Notes: a model not told the origin generated them from the sequence alone. Counted from the stretch's first letter, positions 942-64,000 are shown. The stretch is DNA of 64,000 nt from Candidatus Omnitrophota bacterium (GCA_022709525.1 JAKLIQ010000001.1:210679-274678); one strand, 5' to 3'. Numbers and translations are program-made.

Positions 942-2396
942 ATGAATTATTACGCATTCACCAGCTTATTCAACGGAGCGGTTGTACTCGCGATAAGTTT
1001 TTATCTTTTTTTTCGCCAACGACAAAACGATCTTTATCAAAGTTGCGCCATTTTTGCGATGTGCATCGGTCTGTGGTGCATTTTTTATGCTGTTTGGCAG
1101 ATGCAACATTCTTACCACGAAGCATTGACGTATATACGTCTGGCCATGATTCCATGTTACGCGATCCCTTTTGCTTTCTTGTGGTTTGCATTAAAACTAA
1201 CAAATACTTCCTATCATTCTTGGCAACCAGCCGCACTTCTTGCCATTCTTTTATTTTTTATGTTTTTTAGTTTTAATCCTCTGATGATAAGAAGTGTGGA
1301 ACCTGTAACTGGTTTTAATTTTTGGCCTCGTCCTGGAGTTTTAATGAATTTGTATGTTTCGCTTTTTTTTCTAATAATTTTATTGGGTTATTGGTTTTTA
1401 TGGCAAGCATATCGCAACGCTCGCGATACGCGACGTTGGCAGATTCGATGGGTGATGTTGTCATTACTGCCGGGCTGGTTGGGGGGAGCAACTAACTGGT
1501 GTCTTTGGTATGGTATTCCGGTCCCGCCGGTGGCACATATTTTCGTTGGCGTTGGATTTTTGTTGCTCTTCTACGCAATCGTGCGGGGTCGGTTATTCGA
1601 TGTAGATGTTTTGGCCGATCTTGTGCAAGAAGCAAAGCTTTCAGCGCTTGGGATCATGGCAACAAGTATCAATCATGAAGTGCGGAATCCCTTATTTGTG
1701 ATCAAAGGTCTTGCGGAAACGCTTTTAGAACGGGATGATGCGGATAGAGCGAAGGTCAAAGACATCGCTCAAAGGACCCTTGCGCAGGCCGATCGCGCGC
1801 TTGAGATCATTAAAAATTTTTCCGAGTACGCCAAACGGCAAAGCTCTAAAACATTTGATAAAGCGCCGCTTGATCTTAGAGAAATTCTGGAGGGCATTGT
1901 TCCATTTGTTCGCAGTGAACTGGCGCTGGATAAGATCACGCTAATTCTAACTATCCCGACGGGAACGACCATACAAGCCGATCGTCACTCAGTTGAAGAA
2001 ATCTTTCTAAACCTTATCGTCAATGCCTGCCAGGCTATGCCTGGTGGCGGGGAGATTAAAATCACAGCCAAAACAGGAGACCCGGGACTAGGGACTAGCC
2101 CCTCGTTTTTTTCAAAGCCACGAGCCACGAGTCCCTGCCTGTCCGGCAGGCAGGCCGACGAACGAGTCCCGGTTATTGTTACCATCCAGGACAACGGCCC
2201 TGGGATACCAGCCGAACAGCTGACCCACATTTTTGAGCCGTTTTATACCACCAAGTCCTCCGGGACCGGCCTGGGGCTTTATGTAGTCAGGCAACTCATC
2301 GAAAAAAACCGAGGCCGCATCGAAGCCCAATCAACGCAAGGCGTTGGCGCGACCTTTACGATTTACTTCTCCCGAGGGGCGACAAAACAGTTATAA
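942..2396 (+). CDS. Membrane sensor histidine kinase (multi-TM N-terminus plus HisKA plus HATPase_c); tandem paralog of the upstream partial kinase
   Basis: ATG 942 with AGGAG 13 nt upstream. H-box 'INHEVRNPL'; 'DNGPGIP', 'GTGLGLY'. The ORF-track extension back to 672 overlaps HK1 and is not coding. Confidence 0.85.
   Translation: MNYYAFTSLFNGAVVLAISFYLFFRQRQNDLYQSCAIFAMCIGLWCIFYAVWQMQHSYHEALTYIRLAMIPCYAIPFAFLWFALKLTNTSYHSWQPAALLAILLFFMFFSFNPLMIRSVEPVTGFNFWPRPGVLMNLYVSLFFLIILLGYWFLWQAYRNARDTRRWQIRWVMLSLLPGWLGGATNWCLWYGIPVPPVAHIFVGVGFLLLFYAIVRGRLFDVDVLADLVQEAKLSALGIMATSINHEVRNPLFVIKGLAETLLERDDADRAKVKDIAQRTLAQADRALEIIKNFSEYAKRQSSKTFDKAPLDLREILEGIVPFVRSELALDKITLILTIPTGTTIQADRHSVEEIFLNLIVNACQAMPGGGEIKITAKTGDPGLGTSPSFFSKPRATSPCLSGRQADERVPVIVTIQDNGPGIPAEQLTHIFEPFYTTKSSGTGLGLYVVRQLIEKNRGRIEAQSTQGVGATFTIYFSRGATKQL
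2083..2171. repeat. REP/MITE-like palindromic element inserted in-frame in the HK2 HATPase domain
   Basis: 'cgggactagggactagcccctcgtttttttca ... cctgtccggcaggcaggcc..gaacgagtcccg'. 89 nt, frame preserved, G1/G2 boxes intact downstream. Confidence 0.6.
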
Positions 2397-2511
2397 AATA
2401 AATCGTTTTAAACCGAAACTTTTAATGTTGTTACCCTTTTACTTTTTTCAAGAATAACTGCTTTTCATCCGATAATATCCAAAAGATTTTAAACCAAAAA
2501 AGGTGGTAATT

Positions 2512-3048
2512 ATGGCAAAAATATTTGTGGTTGATGACGACATTTTAGTTTTAAAAGCAATCAGCAAGTTGCTTTCAATTAAAGGTTATTCAGTAAAAGA
2601 AGCTCGTAGCGGACAGGAGGCGATACAAATTTTAAAAAATGAAGTTTTTGATTTAATAATCTCGGATATTCGAATGGCGGGAATTGATGGGATTCAAGTT
2701 GTTGAGCAATTACGCAATATGGGAAGAAATACTCCCGTAATTCTGGTTACAGGGTATGCCAGCGAAGAAGCTCCTGTCGAAGCGTATAGATTAGGAGTCA
2801 GTGATTATATTTTGAAGCCTTTTGATAAAGATGACTTACTAAATAAAGTTGAGAAAAACTTAATCAATCGTAAAGAAAAAATCATTGATTTGTCAAAGCT
2901 TTTAGCAGAACTTGAAAACACAGTTGAACAATTTCAAAATAAAAATGATTTATTAATTTTCGAAAATGAAGAACTGAAATTTTTTTTAAAAAAGCTCGAT
3001 GCCATAATTTTTTCACTTAAAAAATATCAGGTCAAAGTGAATGCATAA
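2512..3048 (+). CDS. Response regulator: REC domain plus C-terminal coiled coil, no DNA-binding domain
   Basis: 'VVDDD...DLIISDIRMAGIDG'. RBS AAAAAGGTGG before ATG 2512. AT-rich codon usage. Confidence 0.8.
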   Translation: MAKIFVVDDDILVLKAISKLLSIKGYSVKEARSGQEAIQILKNEVFDLIISDIRMAGIDGIQVVEQLRNMGRNTPVILVTGYASEEAPVEAYRLGVSDYILKPFDKDDLLNKVEKNLINRKEKIIDLSKLLAELENTVEQFQNKNDLLIFENEELKFFLKKLDAIIFSLKKYQVKVNA

Positions 3049-3955
3049 TAATCGTATAAAGTACTTTTTTTTTAGAATTTTTAGAAAAATTCGAAATTTT
3101 CAGAAAAAAGTTACTCTTTTTTCTATAGAGGTCCGATATCGCTTCTTTCGAAGAATTTTTAATAAATTTATTTCAGCCTCGCAGCAAGCCGCCTTCTTAT
3201 ATCTTAGATTTTTGAGAAGATTACGATTTCGCATCTTAAGATTCTTGGTTTTTTTTATGTGGAAACGATGGCTAGATAGAGTGGATGGTTTGGAAAATAT
3301 TCCTTGGGGTGAGCCAGCTATAATTGCCTCTAATCATCTAAGTTATTTTGATTTTTTTGTTTTGGCCTCATTTTTAGAAAAACAAACAGTATTTATTGCC
3401 ACTAAAGGGCTCGACCAGCGTCAATTTGTTGGATGGTTTATGAAGCTAGATACTATTATTTATGTTGATCGAGATAAACCAGGGTACAGTTTCTTTAAGG
3501 AAATAATAAGACAAGCAAAGAATAAAAAATTAATTGTAATCTATCCAGAAGGAATGCGATCCCGAAGCGGGAAAATGCTCCCCCCAAAAACAGGATTTAT
3601 CAAACTAGCGCTTCTTTGTGGAATTCCTGTTATTCCATTGGCTATGAAAGGAACTTATGAAATTCTTCCACCGCACAGGCATTTACCAAAATTTACCAGA
3701 TGTAGTATAGAAATTGGGAGTAAAATATATTTATCTCCGTCCAATCCAATCCTTAAAGATATTTTTTATAGATGCGCCCAGTCTAAAAAATTCTCAGATT
3801 TAACAGATGAAGGGATCGAGGAAATTGCTTTTCGGATCATGAATCAAGTCAGGGTTATGGCAGGTCAAGAGTGGGATGACACTGCGGTTCTTAAGGCAAA
3901 ACAATATGGTTTATTGCCTCATTCCACGGTAGCAGTTCTCAGTCAAACCTTATGA
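3041..3955 (+). CDS. 1-acyl-sn-glycerol-3-phosphate acyltransferase family (PlsC-like)
   Basis: HX4D motif 'NHLSYFD' and 'IYPEGMRS' block. Exact start uncertain (very basic, Phe-rich N-terminus); overlaps the RR stop. Confidence 0.7.
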   Translation: MHNNRIKYFFFRIFRKIRNFQKKVTLFSIEVRYRFFRRIFNKFISASQQAAFLYLRFLRRLRFRILRFLVFFMWKRWLDRVDGLENIPWGEPAIIASNHLSYFDFFVLASFLEKQTVFIATKGLDQRQFVGWFMKLDTIIYVDRDKPGYSFFKEIIRQAKNKKLIVIYPEGMRSRSGKMLPPKTGFIKLALLCGIPVIPLAMKGTYEILPPHRHLPKFTRCSIEIGSKIYLSPSNPILKDIFYRCAQSKKFSDLTDEGIEEIAFRIMNQVRVMAGQEWDDTAVLKAKQYGLLPHSTVAVLSQTL

Positions 3956-4614
3956 TAAAAGCCGCCTTTTTCGATATTGATGGCACATTAATTTCTTGTC
4001 AAAGCCAGCAAGAATTATCTAAATTTATGTTCAAAAAGCGAGCCCTTTCTTTTGCTAGTATGTTAAAACTTTTTTTTTGGTTTACAGGTTATAAGCTAGG
4101 AATTTTTAGAAAAACCGTTAGCATTCGAAAAAAAATGTATCGCATACTTTCTTTAAAAAATAAAAACCAAATTGATTTATTCATCAAAGAAACGTATGAA
4201 AAAAATATATATCCTCAGAGAAATCAAATTTTCAAATCAATCATACAAGGACTCAAAAAAAGAAAATATATAGTTGTTGGCATATCCGGCACGCTTCAGC
4301 AATTTTGCGATTTTATAAAAGTAGAATTTGATATGGATTACGCCTTTGGAACTAAACTTTGTGAAGAAAAGGAGCGATATAGCGGTCGTTGGATAGGCAA
4401 AATACTAGAGGGTGAAGATAAAGCAGAATTTATTCAAAAATTTTCTAAAACAAATAATGTAGATTTAAACAATAGTATATTTTATGGTGATAGCAGTTCT
4501 GATATTCCGTCGATGAAGTTGGTTGGAAAAGCGATTGCCGTGGCCCCAGATATCAAATTAGAGCGATTAGCTAAGAAGAAAGGTTGGGACATTATTGATG
4601 CAGGAAGTTTTTAA
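3952..4614 (+). CDS. HAD-superfamily subfamily IB hydrolase (phosphoserine-phosphatase-like)
   Basis: Motif I 'FFDIDGTLIS', motif IV 'GDSSSD'. ATGA overlap with the PlsC stop. Confidence 0.75.
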   Translation: MIKAAFFDIDGTLISCQSQQELSKFMFKKRALSFASMLKLFFWFTGYKLGIFRKTVSIRKKMYRILSLKNKNQIDLFIKETYEKNIYPQRNQIFKSIIQGLKKRKYIVVGISGTLQQFCDFIKVEFDMDYAFGTKLCEEKERYSGRWIGKILEGEDKAEFIQKFSKTNNVDLNNSIFYGDSSSDIPSMKLVGKAIAVAPDIKLERLAKKKGWDIIDAGSF

Positions 4615-6925
4615 AGATCAATACATGCTGGCATCTAGCTTTACGGCAGCGTCAACCTTTTTGTTAGCGGCTTTGGTTTTTTGGAAGAATTATAAGCGGC
4701 GATTGAACCTGCTTTACTTTTTTTGGGCTTTTTCAGTAGGATTTTGGAGTTTGGCACTTGTTTTTAACATTTTTTCATCAAATTTTACATCAGCGATTTT
4801 TTGGTCAAAAATTTTACATTTTTGGGCAATTCTTCTTCCTCCTATTTATGTTCATTTTGTCCTTCTTTTTTTACAAAAGGAAAATAAGTTCAAACGCTTA
4901 ATTATAGGCATATATCTACTTTCCTTCGTAACAATTCTTTTAGATTTTTCACCTTGGTTTTTGACATCAACTTATCGAGAAAAATTCCATTTTTTTGTTA
5001 CCAAGCCTTTAGCGCTTTATCCATTACATATTGTTTTATTTGTATTCTGCATTTTGTTTGCAATTTTCCAACTCTTTCTAAGTTTTAGAGAAAGTAAGGG
5101 AAAATATAAACAGCAGGTATGGTTCTTTTTTTTAGCAACGTTAATTGGTTATTCAGGGGGAATCACGAATTTTTTAATTAATTATGATTTTTTGATTTAT
5201 CCTCTTTATCCTTTTGGAAACTATACAATTTGTGCATATGTCGTTGTAATAGGTCTCGGTATTTTAAAATATCAGCTAATGGATATTTATGTAATCATTA
5301 GAAAAACTTTGGTTTTTGCAGGATTGTTTGGTCTTTTACTGTTGGTGGTGGGAACAATCACGGCGTTGACACAAAGTTATATCGGGCAACTTGTTGGAAT
5401 CGGAGCAACGACGAGGCAGATCTTAAGCATTTTGATTGCGATGGTGCTGTTTGATCCAGTCCGAAAATTTCTTACAAACGTTACTGATAAATTTCTTTTT
5501 CAGAAAAAATATGATTATCACAAGCTGCTGAAGGATGCGTCGCGGGGGATGTCGAATATCGAGTCGCTCGAGCGCTTGCTAGGACTCGTGGTGCACTTTG
5601 TGACGATGAAAATGCGCATCAAGAACGCCGCGGTACTGATGCGGGAGGGGGCAAGCGATCAATATAACCTTGTTTACCAGCGCGGATTCGACAAGAAATT
5701 CCTCACGCTTACCCTCTATCAAAACGATCCTCTGATCCACTATCTCGAGACGCACAAAGAAGCGGTGGATATCGAGCGCATCAAAGAACAGATCGAAACG
5801 GCTTCTTCCCGCCGTCACGGCAAAATCGCCGAAGATTATGATTACGAGGCGATCCGGGAACGGATGGACCAGCTTCAGGCAGCCTGCTGCGTGCCGAGTT
5901 TTCTGGGGCGCGAACTGCGGAACATCCTCCTCATGGGCGAGAAAAAATCCGGCGAATACTATTCCAATGAAGACCTGAACCTCCTTTATACGCTGGCCCA
6001 GGAATCCTCCATCGCGATCGAGAACGCCCGGCTCTACGATGAGGCGATCAAAAAATCCAGAGAGCTCGAGCATATCAACGACCAGCTCGAACATTCCAAG
6101 ACGCTTCTCATGAAGGCCCTTCAGGAGGCCGAAGGGGCCAATAAACAGCTTCAGGATACCCAGGCCCAGCTGATCCACGAACAAAAGATGGCGACGCTTG
6201 GCCGGCTGGCGGCCTCGGTCGGTCACGAGGTCAATAACCCCCTTACCATCCTTTCCATGAACGTTTCGCGCGTGATCCTGAAACACCGCAAGCATCCGGA
6301 CATGAAGGTGACGGAGATCATCGATGTGTTCGATAAGATGGAAAAAAATATCGAGCGCATCAAGGCGGTTGTGAACACGCTGACCGGCCTTCTTAAAAAA
6401 TCAGAGAAGGGAAAATTCGAAGCGCTATCGCTTAAGCTGATCCTGGAGGAAACCCTGCCGCTCGTGCAGTTCCAGACTTATCTTGATAATCTTTCCGGAA
6501 CGGAGGTCGATTTCAACGTGCCGGGCAACGTTCCCCTCATCCGCGGTGATCTCGAGCGCCTGCAGGAGGTTTTCCTTAATCTTTTTATTAACGCCTTCCA
6601 CGCCATGGCGGGGAAGCGGCACCGGAGGATCGAAGTCCATGCCGAGATGGACCCGCAGGACCCGAATATGGTCGCCGTCCATTTCAAGGATAACGGCTCC
6701 GGCATGACCGAGGATGTCATGAAAAAGGTCTTCAATTACGGGTTTACGACCAAGGCGCCGGGAAAAGGCTCCGGTCTCGGGCTTTACATGTGCAAATATA
6801 TCGTCGAACTCCACGGCGGCACGATCCGGGTCCAAAGCAAGCTCGGGGAGGGAACGACCTTCACGCTGACTTTGCCGATCTATTCCGAAACCTCGACTGT
6901 AAAAACTGTTTCGTCTTCGTCTTAA
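4598..6925 (+). CDS. Large membrane sensor histidine kinase (multi-TM sensor, GAF-like/coiled-coil linker, HisKA, HATPase_c)
   Basis: 'LAASVGHEVNNPL' H-box; 'GSGLGLYMCKYIVELHGG'. 5' third strongly AT-rich, 3' two-thirds GC-rich. Confidence 0.85.
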   Translation: MQEVFKDQYMLASSFTAASTFLLAALVFWKNYKRRLNLLYFFWAFSVGFWSLALVFNIFSSNFTSAIFWSKILHFWAILLPPIYVHFVLLFLQKENKFKRLIIGIYLLSFVTILLDFSPWFLTSTYREKFHFFVTKPLALYPLHIVLFVFCILFAIFQLFLSFRESKGKYKQQVWFFFLATLIGYSGGITNFLINYDFLIYPLYPFGNYTICAYVVVIGLGILKYQLMDIYVIIRKTLVFAGLFGLLLLVVGTITALTQSYIGQLVGIGATTRQILSILIAMVLFDPVRKFLTNVTDKFLFQKKYDYHKLLKDASRGMSNIESLERLLGLVVHFVTMKMRIKNAAVLMREGASDQYNLVYQRGFDKKFLTLTLYQNDPLIHYLETHKEAVDIERIKEQIETASSRRHGKIAEDYDYEAIRERMDQLQAACCVPSFLGRELRNILLMGEKKSGEYYSNEDLNLLYTLAQESSIAIENARLYDEAIKKSRELEHINDQLEHSKTLLMKALQEAEGANKQLQDTQAQLIHEQKMATLGRLAASVGHEVNNPLTILSMNVSRVILKHRKHPDMKVTEIIDVFDKMEKNIERIKAVVNTLTGLLKKSEKGKFEALSLKLILEETLPLVQFQTYLDNLSGTEVDFNVPGNVPLIRGDLERLQEVFLNLFINAFHAMAGKRHRRIEVHAEMDPQDPNMVAVHFKDNGSGMTEDVMKKVFNYGFTTKAPGKGSGLGLYMCKYIVELHGGTIRVQSKLGEGTTFTLTLPIYSETSTVKTVSSSS

Positions 6926-8135: not shown

Positions 8136-8217
8136 TCCGGCATGAAAAACGAGCATGTGCCGGTTGCAAAAATACATACTTTTATGTATACTCTAAATGC
8201 ATACTTTAAGCATTTAG
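8136..8217 (+). promoter_or_regulatory. Candidate operator region for the TA operon: hairpin ccggcatg..catgtgccgg plus two palindromes ATACATA-cttt-TATGTAT and TAAATGC-atactttaa-GCATTTA
   Basis: Read directly; lies immediately upstream of the RHH antitoxin start. Confidence 0.35.
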
Positions 8218-8228
8218 GGGAGAACATT

Positions 8229-8474
8229 ATGGAACACTTGAGTATTACTTTTCCGGAGACTTTGAAAGCCGCGCTTGATCTGGAAGCCAAGCGGGAGGGA
8301 ACGAAAAGGAGCACGCTTATTCAAAAGGCGGTGCTTATTTATTTGAAATTAAAAAAACAAAAAACCACACAGGATCTTCTCAAAGAAGGGTATCTGGAAA
8401 TGGCCGGCGAATCCGAGCGGCTTTTAAACGAATTCAAAGATCTTGATGCGGAGTCCTTCGGCTATGCCGATTAA
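8229..8474 (+). CDS. Ribbon-helix-helix (CopG/MazE-like) antitoxin
   Basis: 'MEHLSITFPETLKAALDLEAKREGTKRSTLIQKAV'. GGGGAG RBS. Overlaps the toxin start. Confidence 0.6.
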   Translation: MEHLSITFPETLKAALDLEAKREGTKRSTLIQKAVLIYLKLKKQKTTQDLLKEGYLEMAGESERLLNEFKDLDAESFGYAD

Positions 8475-8808
8475 ACGGGGGGACCTTTTTTGGGTCGACC
8501 TTGCCTCGACGCGGGGTTCGGAACAGGCGGGCCGGAGACCTGTACTGGTTATTCAAAATGATATTGGCAATGAATTTGCCCCGACGGTCATTGTGGCCCC
8601 CTTGACAACCAAAAGTTTTTCAAAAGACTATCCCACCAATGTTCATGTCCCGAAGTCGATTGGCGGACTAAAATCTGATTCCACGGTCCTTTTATCACAG
8701 ATCCGCACTCTGGATAAAAAACGTCTTGAAAAAAAGATCAGCCATCTTTCCGATACGTATCTTGAAAAGGTCAATCAGGCCATCAAAGTAAGTTTGGGGT
8801 TGGTCTGA
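8464..8808 (+). CDS. mazF: MazF/PemK-family mRNA interferase toxin
   Basis: 'RGDLFWVDL...GSEQAGRRPVLVIQND...PTVIVAPLTT'. Confidence 0.8.
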   Translation: MPIKRGDLFWVDLASTRGSEQAGRRPVLVIQNDIGNEFAPTVIVAPLTTKSFSKDYPTNVHVPKSIGGLKSDSTVLLSQIRTLDKKRLEKKISHLSDTYLEKVNQAIKVSLGLV

Positions 8809-60473: not shown

Positions 60474-62363
60474 ATGACGCAATGGATCGATAAAATAAAG
60501 TGCCCGCAGGACCTGAAACAGGTGCCTTTGGAAAAACTGCCCGAGGTCGCGCAGGAATACCGTCATTTCCTGATCGAATCCGTGGCTAAAACGGGCGGTC
60601 ATCTGGGCGCAAGTCTCGGCGCGCTTGAGCTGAGCATTGCCCTCCATTATGTTCTGAACTCCCCGGAAGATAAGATCTGCTGGGATGTCGGCCATCAAGC
60701 GTATGTCCATAAAATGATCACGGGCCGCAAGGACCGGATGCAAACGCTTCGCCAGCCGGGCGGTTTGAGCGGGTTTCCGGCGCCCTGGGAAAGTCCGCAT
60801 GACCCTTTTATCGTCGGCCATGCTGGCACAGCGATCACCCAAGCCCTCGGGCTTGCCGCAGCGAGGGATCTCCGGCAGGGGAGCGAAAAAGTCGTTGCTG
60901 TCGTCGGCGACGGGGCGATGACCGCGGGGCTTTCTTACGAAGCGCTCAATAGCGCCGGGCATCTGAAAAAGAACATGCTGATCGTTCTCAATGATAACGA
61001 GATGTCCATCGCGAAGAACGTGGGCGCGATGAGCCGTTATCTGAACCGCGTGATCACGAACCCTCTTTACAACCGCATCCGCGGAGAAGTCGAAAAGCAG
61101 CTCAAACGTTTTCCTCGCCTCAAGAAATTCTCCAATGCCTCCCTTGAGGGCATGAAACATCTTTTTGTTCCGGGCATCATTTTTGAAGAGCTCGGATTCC
61201 GGTATTTTGGCCCCGTCGACGGCCATGATGTTATTGGCCTGGTGAAAACTTTGCGTGATATTCTGACTCTCAATACTTGCAGCATTCTTCATATCCTCAC
61301 AAAAAAAGGCAAAGGATGCGCCTTCGCCGAAAAAGACGAAGAAAAAGGCCACGGCGTCGGTCCGTTCGATGTCAAGACCGGAGAAAAGATCGAAACCGTT
61401 TCCTCCCAGGAAGAGGCCTCAGACGTTTCCTATACCCGCGCTTTCGCTGATGCCCTTTCCAAGCAGGCGCGCCGCAATCCCAAGGTCGTCGCCATTACCG
61501 CGGCTATGCCTTCCGGCACGGGCCTTCTTCATTTCCAGAAAGAATTCCCGGAACGTTTTTTTGATGTCGGGATCGCGGAGCAGCACGCCGTATCTTTTGC
61601 CGGGGCCCTGGCCCGCGGCGGCCTAAAACCCGTAGTGGCGATCTATTCTTCATTCCTGCAGAGGTCCCATGATTCGGTCATGCATGACGCGGCCCTTCAA
61701 AGACAGGGTATCGTGCTCGGGATCGACCGCGCAGGGCTCGTCGGCGCCGACGGCGCCACGCACCAGGGGATCTTTGATATGGCCTACCTGGGGTCCGTGC
61801 CCGGCATTGTCCTGGCTTCCCCGGTCGACGAATACGAAATGGAAAAAATGATGGAACTCGCGCTAAGCCATCCCTCGGTTTTCGCGATCCGCTATCCACG
61901 GGCTTATATCCCCAAAATGTTCGATGCTTTCCCAAAAAAAGGTTTTGAAACAGGAGAGGGCGAAGTGCTTTTTGAAGGCGAAGATGTGACGCTGCTTGCC
62001 CTCGGGAGCATGGTGGAAGCGGCTTGTAAAGCCCGCGCGTTCCTCGAAAAAGAGGGCGTTTCGGCGCGCGTCGTCAATATGCGTTTCGCGCGACCGCTTG
62101 ATGAGCAGATCATCCTCGATTCCCTGCAAAAAACAAAAATCCTTTTCACGCTGGAAGAGCATGTCGCCACGGGCGGCTTCGGCTCGAAAGTCCTGGAATT
62201 TCTCGAAGAAAAAAATATTCGCCACATGCCGCTCAAACGCCTGGCCCTTCCCGATGAATTCATTGAGCACGGCGCCCGCGAAGCGCAATTGGATGAATTC
62301 GGCCTCTCGCCCGAAAAGATCGCCGCCTCGGTCCTCAAAGAGCTCTCCCGCCAGACAAAGTAA
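60474..62363 (+). CDS. dxs: 1-deoxy-D-xylulose-5-phosphate synthase
   Basis: ThDP motif 'GDGAMTAG...NDN'; 629 aa. Confidence 0.9.
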   Translation: MTQWIDKIKCPQDLKQVPLEKLPEVAQEYRHFLIESVAKTGGHLGASLGALELSIALHYVLNSPEDKICWDVGHQAYVHKMITGRKDRMQTLRQPGGLSGFPAPWESPHDPFIVGHAGTAITQALGLAAARDLRQGSEKVVAVVGDGAMTAGLSYEALNSAGHLKKNMLIVLNDNEMSIAKNVGAMSRYLNRVITNPLYNRIRGEVEKQLKRFPRLKKFSNASLEGMKHLFVPGIIFEELGFRYFGPVDGHDVIGLVKTLRDILTLNTCSILHILTKKGKGCAFAEKDEEKGHGVGPFDVKTGEKIETVSSQEEASDVSYTRAFADALSKQARRNPKVVAITAAMPSGTGLLHFQKEFPERFFDVGIAEQHAVSFAGALARGGLKPVVAIYSSFLQRSHDSVMHDAALQRQGIVLGIDRAGLVGADGATHQGIFDMAYLGSVPGIVLASPVDEYEMEKMMELALSHPSVFAIRYPRAYIPKMFDAFPKKGFETGEGEVLFEGEDVTLLALGSMVEAACKARAFLEKEGVSARVVNMRFARPLDEQIILDSLQKTKILFTLEEHVATGGFGSKVLEFLEEKNIRHMPLKRLALPDEFIEHGAREAQLDEFGLSPEKIAASVLKELSRQTK

Positions 62364-62455
62364 AGCACTAGTATTATTTTATGCAGATAGCAAAATCGTA
62401 CCAAGTACACAGGGGACAGATTAATCGAGATATTTTAAAAAGGGAGGTAAAACGC

Positions 62456-62620
62456 ATGCAAGCCAATGAAGCTGAAAGGCTCCGCAAAGAATGGGGCGCA
62501 AAACCTTGTGAGCATCCTAAATGGGAAAAAGAGTATATTTTAGGCTCGGACACAGGTGATAAAGTCTGTTCACAATGCGGAGCATTAGATTACGACATTA
62601 AGAATAAGAAAAAAGGATAG
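62456..62620 (+). CDS. Small zinc-ribbon protein (54 aa) in the AT-rich patch
   Basis: Strong RBS AAGGGAGGT. 'CEHPKW...CSQCG'. The ORF-track start at 62381 has no RBS. Confidence 0.35.
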   Translation: MQANEAERLRKEWGAKPCEHPKWEKEYILGSDTGDKVCSQCGALDYDIKNKKKG

Positions 62621-62621
62621 A

Positions 62622-63704
62622 TTGACATCGAGTTGCTTATTTCTCAATAAAATGTCCAGAATACCAGCAGAGGAATTTCAACAACTTTATTGTGATAAAA
62701 AAATGAAGATGAGCGAAATAGCAGCTCATTTCAATACTACTATTTATTATCTGCATCGATTAAGAAAGCGTTACGGCATTCCTAGGCGAAATAAAGGAGA
62801 GCCAAATTTTAAACCTGAAACTTTAAAAAAAATCGAAACCATTAATGAGCTTTATCTGCAAGGCCTACACCCGCGAGTAATTGCCGAAAACCTAGGCATT
62901 ACAGAGAAAGCCTTGCGAACATTTTGTTGGATTCATCAGATTAAAAGCAAAGGACAGCAATATTGGTCCCCTTATTCCATAAATGAAAGATTTTTCTCAA
63001 ATTGGTCTAATGAAATGGCGTGGGCGCTTGGTTGGATTCTTACAGATGGCGTCATAGTTTTTCAAGGAATAGTCCATCAACTAAAGTTTCAAATCACAGA
63101 TAAAGAAGTAGTGGAAAAAATACGCACTATTATGGGGTCAACGCATCCAATAACCGATGTAAAACCATACGGCAATTCAAAAAAAGTGCAATATCGTATT
63201 TTAATATCTAACCAAAACATCATAAAAGATCTAGCCAGATTAAACATTGTTAAAAGGAAAAGCTTAATCGTGAAAATGCCCGAAATGCCCGCAGAGTATT
63301 TTGGTCATTTTTTACGGGGAGTTTTTGAAGGCGATGGATCTATTCATATTAACCACCGAAGCAAAAGCGGTGAGCCTTCCTACCGAGTAAAAATTGTTTC
63401 TGGATCAAAGCTTTTCATCGAAGGACTTCAACGCAAAATGATTGAATTGCATGGACTAAGTAGCTCATTACATAAAGATAGGGCCAGAGAATTTTACGAA
63501 CTGAACTGGAATAGTGCGAATGATATTTACAAAATGGGCCGCATTATGTATGAAGGCGTCAGTGACAATTTAATTTTAGCGAGAAAGCGGAATATATTTC
63601 ATGAGTTTCAAACAACGCAATACAAAAGATTCTTAGACAAACGTAAAATGGTACAAGGTGCAGCGGAAGCCCCGCACCATAAGTCTGCGGGGCAAGCAGG
63701 TTGA
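62622..63704 (+). CDS. Free-standing two-motif LAGLIDADG homing-endonuclease-like protein with N-terminal HTH domains
   Basis: 'LGWILTDGVI' and 'LRGVFEGDGSI' LAGLIDADG motifs. HTH 'MSEIAAHFNTTIYYLHRLRKRYGI'. AT-rich codon usage. Start TTG 62622 or ATG 62652. Confidence 0.7.
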   Translation: MTSSCLFLNKMSRIPAEEFQQLYCDKKMKMSEIAAHFNTTIYYLHRLRKRYGIPRRNKGEPNFKPETLKKIETINELYLQGLHPRVIAENLGITEKALRTFCWIHQIKSKGQQYWSPYSINERFFSNWSNEMAWALGWILTDGVIVFQGIVHQLKFQITDKEVVEKIRTIMGSTHPITDVKPYGNSKKVQYRILISNQNIIKDLARLNIVKRKSLIVKMPEMPAEYFGHFLRGVFEGDGSIHINHRSKSGEPSYRVKIVSGSKLFIEGLQRKMIELHGLSSSLHKDRAREFYELNWNSANDIYKMGRIMYEGVSDNLILARKRNIFHEFQTTQYKRFLDKRKMVQGAAEAPHHKSAGQAG

Positions 63705-63740
63705 TTTTGAATAACTTTTCTTATTCCGGCTGGAGTTTTT

Positions 63741-63953
63741 ATGAATGAAATTCCTTTTACCCCCGCGGGAGAATTCATAGAGCTTTTCAAGCTTCTCAAG
63801 GCGACTGGTCTTTGCGACAGCGGGGGATTGGCCAAATATGCGATCGCGAATTCTCAGGTCAAAGTCGACGGCCAAATAGAAACCCGCAAAGCCTGCAAGA
63901 TCCGCCAAGGTCAACGGGTCGAGTTCTCCGGCCATACCATCCTGGTCCGGTAA
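63741..63953 (+). CDS. S4-domain RNA-binding protein (YbcJ-like)
   Basis: 'GLAKYAIANSQVKVDGQIETRKACKIRQGQRVEF'. Confidence 0.7.
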   Translation: MNEIPFTPAGEFIELFKLLKATGLCDSGGLAKYAIANSQVKVDGQIETRKACKIRQGQRVEFSGHTILVR

Positions 63954-64000
63954 TCCACATTTCCTCTCCTGAAAAGGCATGTTCTGGCCGTTAAATACCA

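Follow-up and report, generated by a model that had tools for sequence, protein, structure and literature searches.

We propose that the AT-rich patch downstream of dxs in this Candidatus Omnitrophota genome is a horizontally acquired two-gene cassette, the larger gene of which encodes a free-standing, single-chain LAGLIDADG homing endonuclease with tandem HTH modules, a reading that we hold to be probable by a comfortable measure. It draws on the modelled fold of the protein, the presence of both motif aspartates, the intergenic place of the gene and seven empty junctions in related genomes, and it strengthens the case for the free-standing homing or selfish element that the sequence-only reading of this DNA had put forward.

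An insertion between dxs and an S4-domain gene

The window, i.e. the entire 64,000-nucleotide stretch that was analysed (GCA_022709525.1 JAKLIQ010000001.1:210679-274678), has the following features at and around the patch.

60474..62363, + strand: dxs, the host gene on the left flank (Pfam DXP_synthase_N, E 1.3e-111)
62364..63725, no strand assigned: inserted AT-rich cassette, 1362 nt, from the dxs stop codon to the retained 15-nt spacer
62442..62447, + strand: Shine-Dalgarno-like GGGAGG, 8 nt 5′ of ATG 62456, with a function presumed from sequence
62456..62620, + strand: small orphan ORF, 54 aa from ATG 62456 as set by gene callers
62609..62624, + strand: ORF junction, comprising an A6 run (62609-62614), AAGGA, TAG (62618-62620) and a TTG start (62622)
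62622..63704, + strand: LAGLIDADG endonuclease ORF, 360 aa; an alternative start, ATG 62652, gives 350 aa
63726..63740, + strand: retained host spacer CCGGCTGGAGTTTTT, directly 5′ of the S4 gene ATG; matches CCGGCCGGAGTTTTG of the L008 empty site
63741..63953, + strand: S4_2/YbcJ-like gene, the host gene on the right flank, 70 aa (Pfam S4_2, 82.5 bits)

Across 62350-63700 the GC content of the window falls from about 0.55 to 0.35-0.40, and GC3 is 0.38 in the small ORF and 0.33 in the 360-aa ORF, compared with 0.61-0.64 in xseA, xseB, ispA, dxs and the S4 gene. The earlier description of an AT-rich patch between dxs and an S4-domain gene was right in both place and content. The bounds of the insert, 62364-63725, were fixed by aligning occupied and empty junctions; the flanking genes keep their host composition right to these boundaries, and dxs (stop codon at 62361-62363) and the S4 gene are both full length around the insert. 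The S4 gene also scores 69.5 bits against the NCBIfam YbcJ model, under the model cut-off of 95.

Scans with Dxs recovered relatives with Dxs proteins 88-91% identical, from other metagenomes and a Candidatus Omnitrophota MAG. The nearest genomes that bear a name assign the host to the Omnitrophota, as does the source of the sole database entry for the small ORF. Because the S4 gene begins 12-27 nt after the dxs stop in seven relatives (L008, L009, L011, L012, L013, L016 and L091), the patch is an insertion and not a conserved piece of synteny. Occupied junctions are those of the window, L001 and L002, which are mutually 99.98-100% identical and represent one population, so that presence and absence vary at a fixed site among related genomes with a single occupied lineage. 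Comparison of the dxs 3′ flank across these genomes thus gave the outcome expected of a mobile patch: rather than being conserved, syntenic and typical in composition, it is missing from close relatives and foreign in its GC3. Other relatives carry unrelated genes at this position. In L014 an 840-nt insert at the dxs/S4 junction (1621-2460) encodes a Gp49 protein (HigB-like, PF05973) and an HTH_3 protein, and in L010 (6891-8105) HTH_3 and Fic genes directly follow dxs, and no S4 gene turns up in the following 5 kb. The dxs/S4 junction therefore seems to be a hot spot at which small selfish cassettes insert.

The endonuclease ORF is intergenic, placed after the stop codon of dxs and before the start of the S4 gene, and Rfam detects three tRNAs and no intron at gathering score in the whole window, and neither an intron nor anything else relevant at E ≤ 1 in 62200-64000. 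With the flanking genes intact as well, an intron- or intein-borne ORF is ruled out, in keeping with the earlier impression that neither context is evident. A transposon or IS is also ruled out: no terminal direct or inverted repeats and no duplication were found at 62364/63725, and no transposase appears among the Pfam, NCBIfam and PHROGs family matches. No second copy of the cassette was found within the 64-kb window.

Near the right end of the cassette, a perfect 7-bp GC-rich hairpin (GCCCCGC, an 11-nt loop, GCGGGGC) occupies 63669-63693, which falls in the final 12 codons of the endonuclease ORF. These codons belong to a GC-rich tail (aa 341-360), modelled with low confidence, outside the region common to most relatives. 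A T-rich stretch is located about 10 nt 3′ of this hairpin, which may be a terminator or a cassette end structure.

Elsewhere in the window, 2000-6000 is a second AT-rich stretch (GC 0.31-0.43 versus about 0.53). Going by translations only, the proteins encoded there resemble a response regulator, an acyltransferase, a HAD-type hydrolase and the membrane portion of a histidine kinase, and the stretch may likewise have been acquired as a block. Two histidine-kinase-like ORFs, at 22-936 and 672-2396, have in common an unusual, nearly identical segment (…AKTGD[SP]GLGTSPSFFS…SGRQA[KD]ERVPVIVTIQDNGPGIP…), which points to a duplication of recent date or to recombination between the paralogues. At 8142-8808, neighbouring overlapping ORFs of 110 and 121 aa, the second of them resembling by sequence a MazF/PemK-type toxin (…GDLFWVDL…RPVLVIQND…), form a probable toxin-antitoxin pair.

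The two genes of the cassette

The domains of the larger protein map to the window as follows.

62667..62774, + strand: HTH module 1, aa 16-51, with three model helices (16-25, 30-36, 41-51)
62814..62933, + strand: HTH module 2, aa 65-104, with three model helices (65-79, 84-91, 95-104)
63009..63239, + strand: LAGLIDADG domain 1, motif 1 LGWILTDG, catalytic-position D142 (GAT 63045-63047)
63291..63551, + strand: LAGLIDADG domain 2, aa 224-310, motif 2 LRGVFEGDG, catalytic-position D238 (GAT 63333-63335)

The 350-360-aa protein with 'LGWILTDGVI' and 'LRGVFEGDGSI' that the sequence-only reading had described is present, with these segments starting at L136 and L231, so that two LAGLIDADG motifs (aa 136-143 and aa 231-239) occupy a single chain. 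Pfam LAGLIDADG_3 matches aa 230-301 with 33.3 bits against a cut-off of 22.5, and phrog_4645, annotated 'endonuclease', spans aa 23-328, nearly end to end, with an E-value of 1.1e-44; no NCBIfam model matches the 360-aa protein. In the AlphaFold model of the 360-aa protein (mean pLDDT 89.7, pTM 0.77) the domain elements occupy aa 130-206 and aa 224-310, and D142 and D238 are each found at the end of one LAGLIDADG helix. Every one of the best 50 matches of this model in a Foldseek search of the PDB is a LAGLIDADG enzyme or maturase, the best fold matches being I-AniI, I-Tsp061I and I-DmoI, with TM-scores normalised to the target of up to 0.70 for the latter two. Single-sequence searching of solved structures returned a weak tandem-HTH match alone (2lvs, E 0.15), and a profile search was needed to reach the solved LAGLIDADG structures. 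The family profile aligned with both motifs and halves of I-Tsp061I (E 8.5e-13), followed by I-HjeMI, I-AniI, V-ATPase inteins, I-DmoI and PI-PfuI. Together with the Pfam match above cut-off, these profile and fold matches uphold the LAGLIDADG identity first assigned by eye.

Eight positions are invariant in a 44-member alignment of the family, namely F125, G137, D142, G143, K213, G233, D238 and G239, and all eight are kept in the Omnitrophota protein. They include the GxxxxDG cores of both motifs, as well as K213, the one conserved lysine that was identified. The acidic residues sought in 'TDG' and 'GDG' are accordingly present as D142 and D238. The corresponding acidic residues at the motif ends of I-DmoI, D20 and E117, are its catalytic ones, and a metal-binding role is assigned to D142 and D238 because D20 and E117 have that role (PMC3384342). 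As modelled, then, the protein displays a complete two-domain LAGLIDADG fold with both metal-binding aspartates, and the retention of every invariant family position makes it likely that the enzyme is active.

The two HTH-like segments that had been noticed ahead of the LAGLIDADG motifs correspond to two three-helix bundles in this confident model, and Pfam HTH_23 scores 22.3 bits on aa 77-107, just under its cut-off of 24.6. Residues 16-117 also match the N-terminal parts of phage HNH endonuclease PHROGs and of a D5-like regulator family. Because of the match to HNH endonuclease N-termini, the predicted DNA-binding head is considered a module common to different nuclease families. Nuclease-associated modular DNA-binding domains of this kind were reportedly treated by Sitbon and Pietrokovski in 2003.

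The small upstream ORF is much less readily classified. Its longest reading (62381-62620) is 79 aa and contains the Cys/His arrangement C42-x-H44 ... C63-x2-C66, and a small ORF is present as originally described. The zinc-ribbon label is putative at best: the ORF matches no family in Pfam, NCBIfam, PHROGs or PADLOC, its model is of low confidence (pLDDT 57.5), and a search of 5.8 billion proteins returned the ORF itself alone, in an Omnitrophota MAG, where its contig measures up to 420 kb. One base separates its TAG from the TTG start of the endonuclease, an arrangement that suggests translational coupling combined with weak initiation of the nuclease.

The endonuclease frame carries no stop from about 62586 on and overlaps the 3′ end of the small ORF, with the A6 run at 62609-62614 in the overlap, and by the reading frames a +1 shift at this run would join both ORFs. 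Four relatives (P0002, P0011, P0017 and P0026) have a CxxC...CxxC segment fused ahead of their HTH modules. A fusion by +1 frameshifting is at this point an idea only, prompted by the position of the run, the frames and the same domain order in these four proteins; by BLASTP the Cys-rich N-terminus of P0002 shows no homology to the small ORF (E at least 0.16). If true, it would recreate the zinc-ribbon-HTH-LAGLIDADG order and would throttle the dosage of the nuclease.

A large and largely phage-borne family

An exhaustive HMMER search yielded 15,897 clusters (50% identity level) at E ≤ 0.001, of which 4,029 reached E ≤ 1e-10, most of them 200-470 aa in length. No close relative of the endonuclease was found among about 15 billion proteins; identity rises above 40% in just two relatives, P0002 (42-43%) and P0007 (41%), and these nearest relatives (about 41-43% identical) do not adjoin dxs. 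P0002 is located amid unannotated genes. P0003, which is 26% identical, is encoded by a stand-alone gene in a bacterial chromosome, with small HTH genes around it and rpoN adjacent; in its islet (L171, 5339-7479) a DUF134/sigma70_r4-like gene lies upstream and HTH_17/HTH_3 genes downstream. Neither the P0002 nor the P0003 locus has a composition that gives a clear island signal. The earlier remark that a stand-alone bacterial LAGLIDADG enzyme is unusual was therefore overstated. It is correct that the Omnitrophota gene stands alone, but a family of some 15,900 clusters, together with the context of P0003, indicates that stand-alone members in bacterial chromosomes are not exceptional.

The family is shown to be not only very large but largely phage-borne. 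Scanning IMG/VR yielded more than 500 confirmed matches on viral contigs, and tblastn against 50,697 phage records matched 132 records at about 25% identity. In Providencia phage PR1 and Brevibacillus phage Jenst the homologue is located between the pieces of a split DNA polymerase gene, and the Staphylococcus Silviavirus homologue lies between a 'DNA repair protein' and a 'DNA repair recombinase', such that family members split phage polymerase and recombinase genes. Gene splitting of this type is classical behaviour for homing endonucleases. No group I introns were detected around the phage homologues L088-L090 at Rfam gathering score.

The closest known counterparts of the Omnitrophota enzyme are these PHROG 4645 phage enzymes (PR1 gp092, Jenst gp054 and the Silviavirus 'putative endonuclease'), which match over the full-length profile (E 1e-44), are about 25% identical over the HTH and LAGLIDADG regions, belong to the same size class and share the HTH-then-nuclease order. 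They differ in context, the phage genes being placed inside split polymerase or recombinase genes, whereas the Omnitrophota gene lies between intact housekeeping genes. The monomeric LAGLIDADG enzymes of solved structure, I-Tsp061I, I-DmoI, I-AniI and I-HjeMI, are intron-encoded, unlike the window gene; they are 14-17% identical to it and lack the N-terminal tandem-HTH extension of about 115 aa.

The features of free-standing endonucleases are known in part from the literature on seg and mob genes. As in the T-even Seg and Mob systems, the gene described here is a stand-alone gene in a short spacer that separates conserved genes, patchily distributed among close relatives and lower in GC than its neighbours, and it joins a nuclease domain to modular HTH-type DNA-binding domains (PMC3984707). 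Seg and Mob, however, are GIY-YIG or HNH enzymes of phage genomes for which homing in mixed infections has been demonstrated, while here the nuclease is of the LAGLIDADG type, is located in a chromosome, and is a predicted homing enzyme. WhiA/DUF199 proteins also combine a LAGLIDADG fold with an HTH domain in bacterial chromosomes, but they have lost the catalytic residues, carry the HTH at the C-terminus and are universal in their clade (PMC3384342), none of which is true of the protein described here.

Homing, entry and competing explanations

The targets of LAGLIDADG homing endonucleases are long, about 14-40 bp. We propose that the enzyme would make a site-specific double-strand break in such a long target, of which its two β-sheet saddles would read approximately 20 bp, with the HTH modules serving to lengthen or anchor recognition. 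The target would lie near the insertion point in empty alleles, and when an endonuclease-free allele meets an occupied one, repair would copy the cassette into it, a process of 'intronless homing' like that of the phage T4 seg and mob genes (PMC3984707). Nuclease expression would probably be low, with the strong Shine-Dalgarno sequence serving the small ORF and the nuclease starting at TTG. Cleavage and homing are in this sense predicted from the protein sequence and its context. In the empty alleles the start of the S4 gene is conserved as ATGGAARAGATCYYTTTT, from which the occupied allele differs at five positions; ATGGAARAGATCYYTTTT is a candidate endonuclease target, and nothing more.

Low GC and the absence of close relatives suggest that entry was recent and single, probably from a phage or other low-GC donor, into a junction that accepts cassettes. 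Because the flanks are host-like right to the boundaries, the first entry would not have been homing from an AT-rich donor; illegitimate recombination is the probable route, and the gene may be a passenger of recent arrival that is still intact. The distribution of the cassette also tells against a homing element to some extent: it is carried by one population, and nothing indicates that it has spread to this junction in other lineages, because its nearest relatives are 41-42% identical and are not found by dxs. Furthermore, the unrelated cassettes of L014 and L010 at the same junction make selection of the site by the endonuclease less certain; the junction may simply be permissive instead of an enzyme-selected target.

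These same facts would be accommodated by an element that arrived illegitimately, e.g. with a phage, at a tolerant junction, has no target in its host and is idle, remaining intact since it is recent. Carriage by a single population, the absence of close relatives in protein searches, a composition that has not ameliorated, the unrelated cassettes at the junction and host-like flanks without a sign of co-converted donor sequence are all consistent with such a history. The full-length ORF, the retention of every invariant residue and operon signals that look intact argue for an active element instead, although a recent arrival and an active element look alike in sequence alone; overall, we regard idleness as unlikely, while granting it appreciable weight. 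A broader alternative, to which we give a slim chance, is that the dxs/S4 spacer is a landing pad with interchanging two-gene cassettes, the LAGLIDADG pair being an addiction or defence unit, or that the nuclease is made as a frameshift-controlled fusion with the small ORF.

Taken by itself, an addiction or defence function, with the nuclease as toxin or as effector against phages and the small Cys/His ORF as its antitoxin or regulator, is improbable. Toxin-antitoxin-type pairs do occupy the same junction in relatives (Gp49 and HTH_3 in L014, HTH_3 and Fic in L010), the window ORFs are tightly coupled, and P0003 likewise has small HTH genes on its flanks, but PADLOC returns just a weak generic 'HEase' match for the nuclease (E 0.0013) and none for the small ORF, which is an orphan and was found beside no other member of the family, and the phage relatives behave as gene-splitting homing endonucleases. 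The sequence-only reading had offered, in addition, a domesticated DNA-binding regulator that reuses the LAGLIDADG fold and HTH in the manner of WhiA, and the resemblance in composition (PMC3384342), as well as the housekeeping neighbours, would fit this. However, the protein retains both aspartates and has its HTH modules at the N-terminus, whereas WhiA lacks the acidic residues and has a C-terminal HTH (PMC3384342); in the PDB profile search WhiA is matched on the HTH part only, with an E-value of 0.17. Such a regulator is also difficult to reconcile with a gene of foreign GC3 that is missing in seven close relatives, and the patchy distribution, foreign composition and retained catalytic residues leave domestication very improbable indeed.

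Our preferred reading, a free-standing homing endonuclease within an acquired cassette, leaves the knowledge of homing endonucleases unchanged, the family being very large and well represented in phages. The Omnitrophota protein is a divergent new endonuclease, and its gene, found here in an uncultured phylum, is a selfish gene of a familiar kind that does not depart from known biology. As a divergent meganuclease scaffold, about 42% identical at most to anything else and provided with an extra tandem-HTH reader, it is of possible interest to enzyme engineers. Because both the occupied and the empty alleles are available, a guess at its target site lends itself to a direct test.
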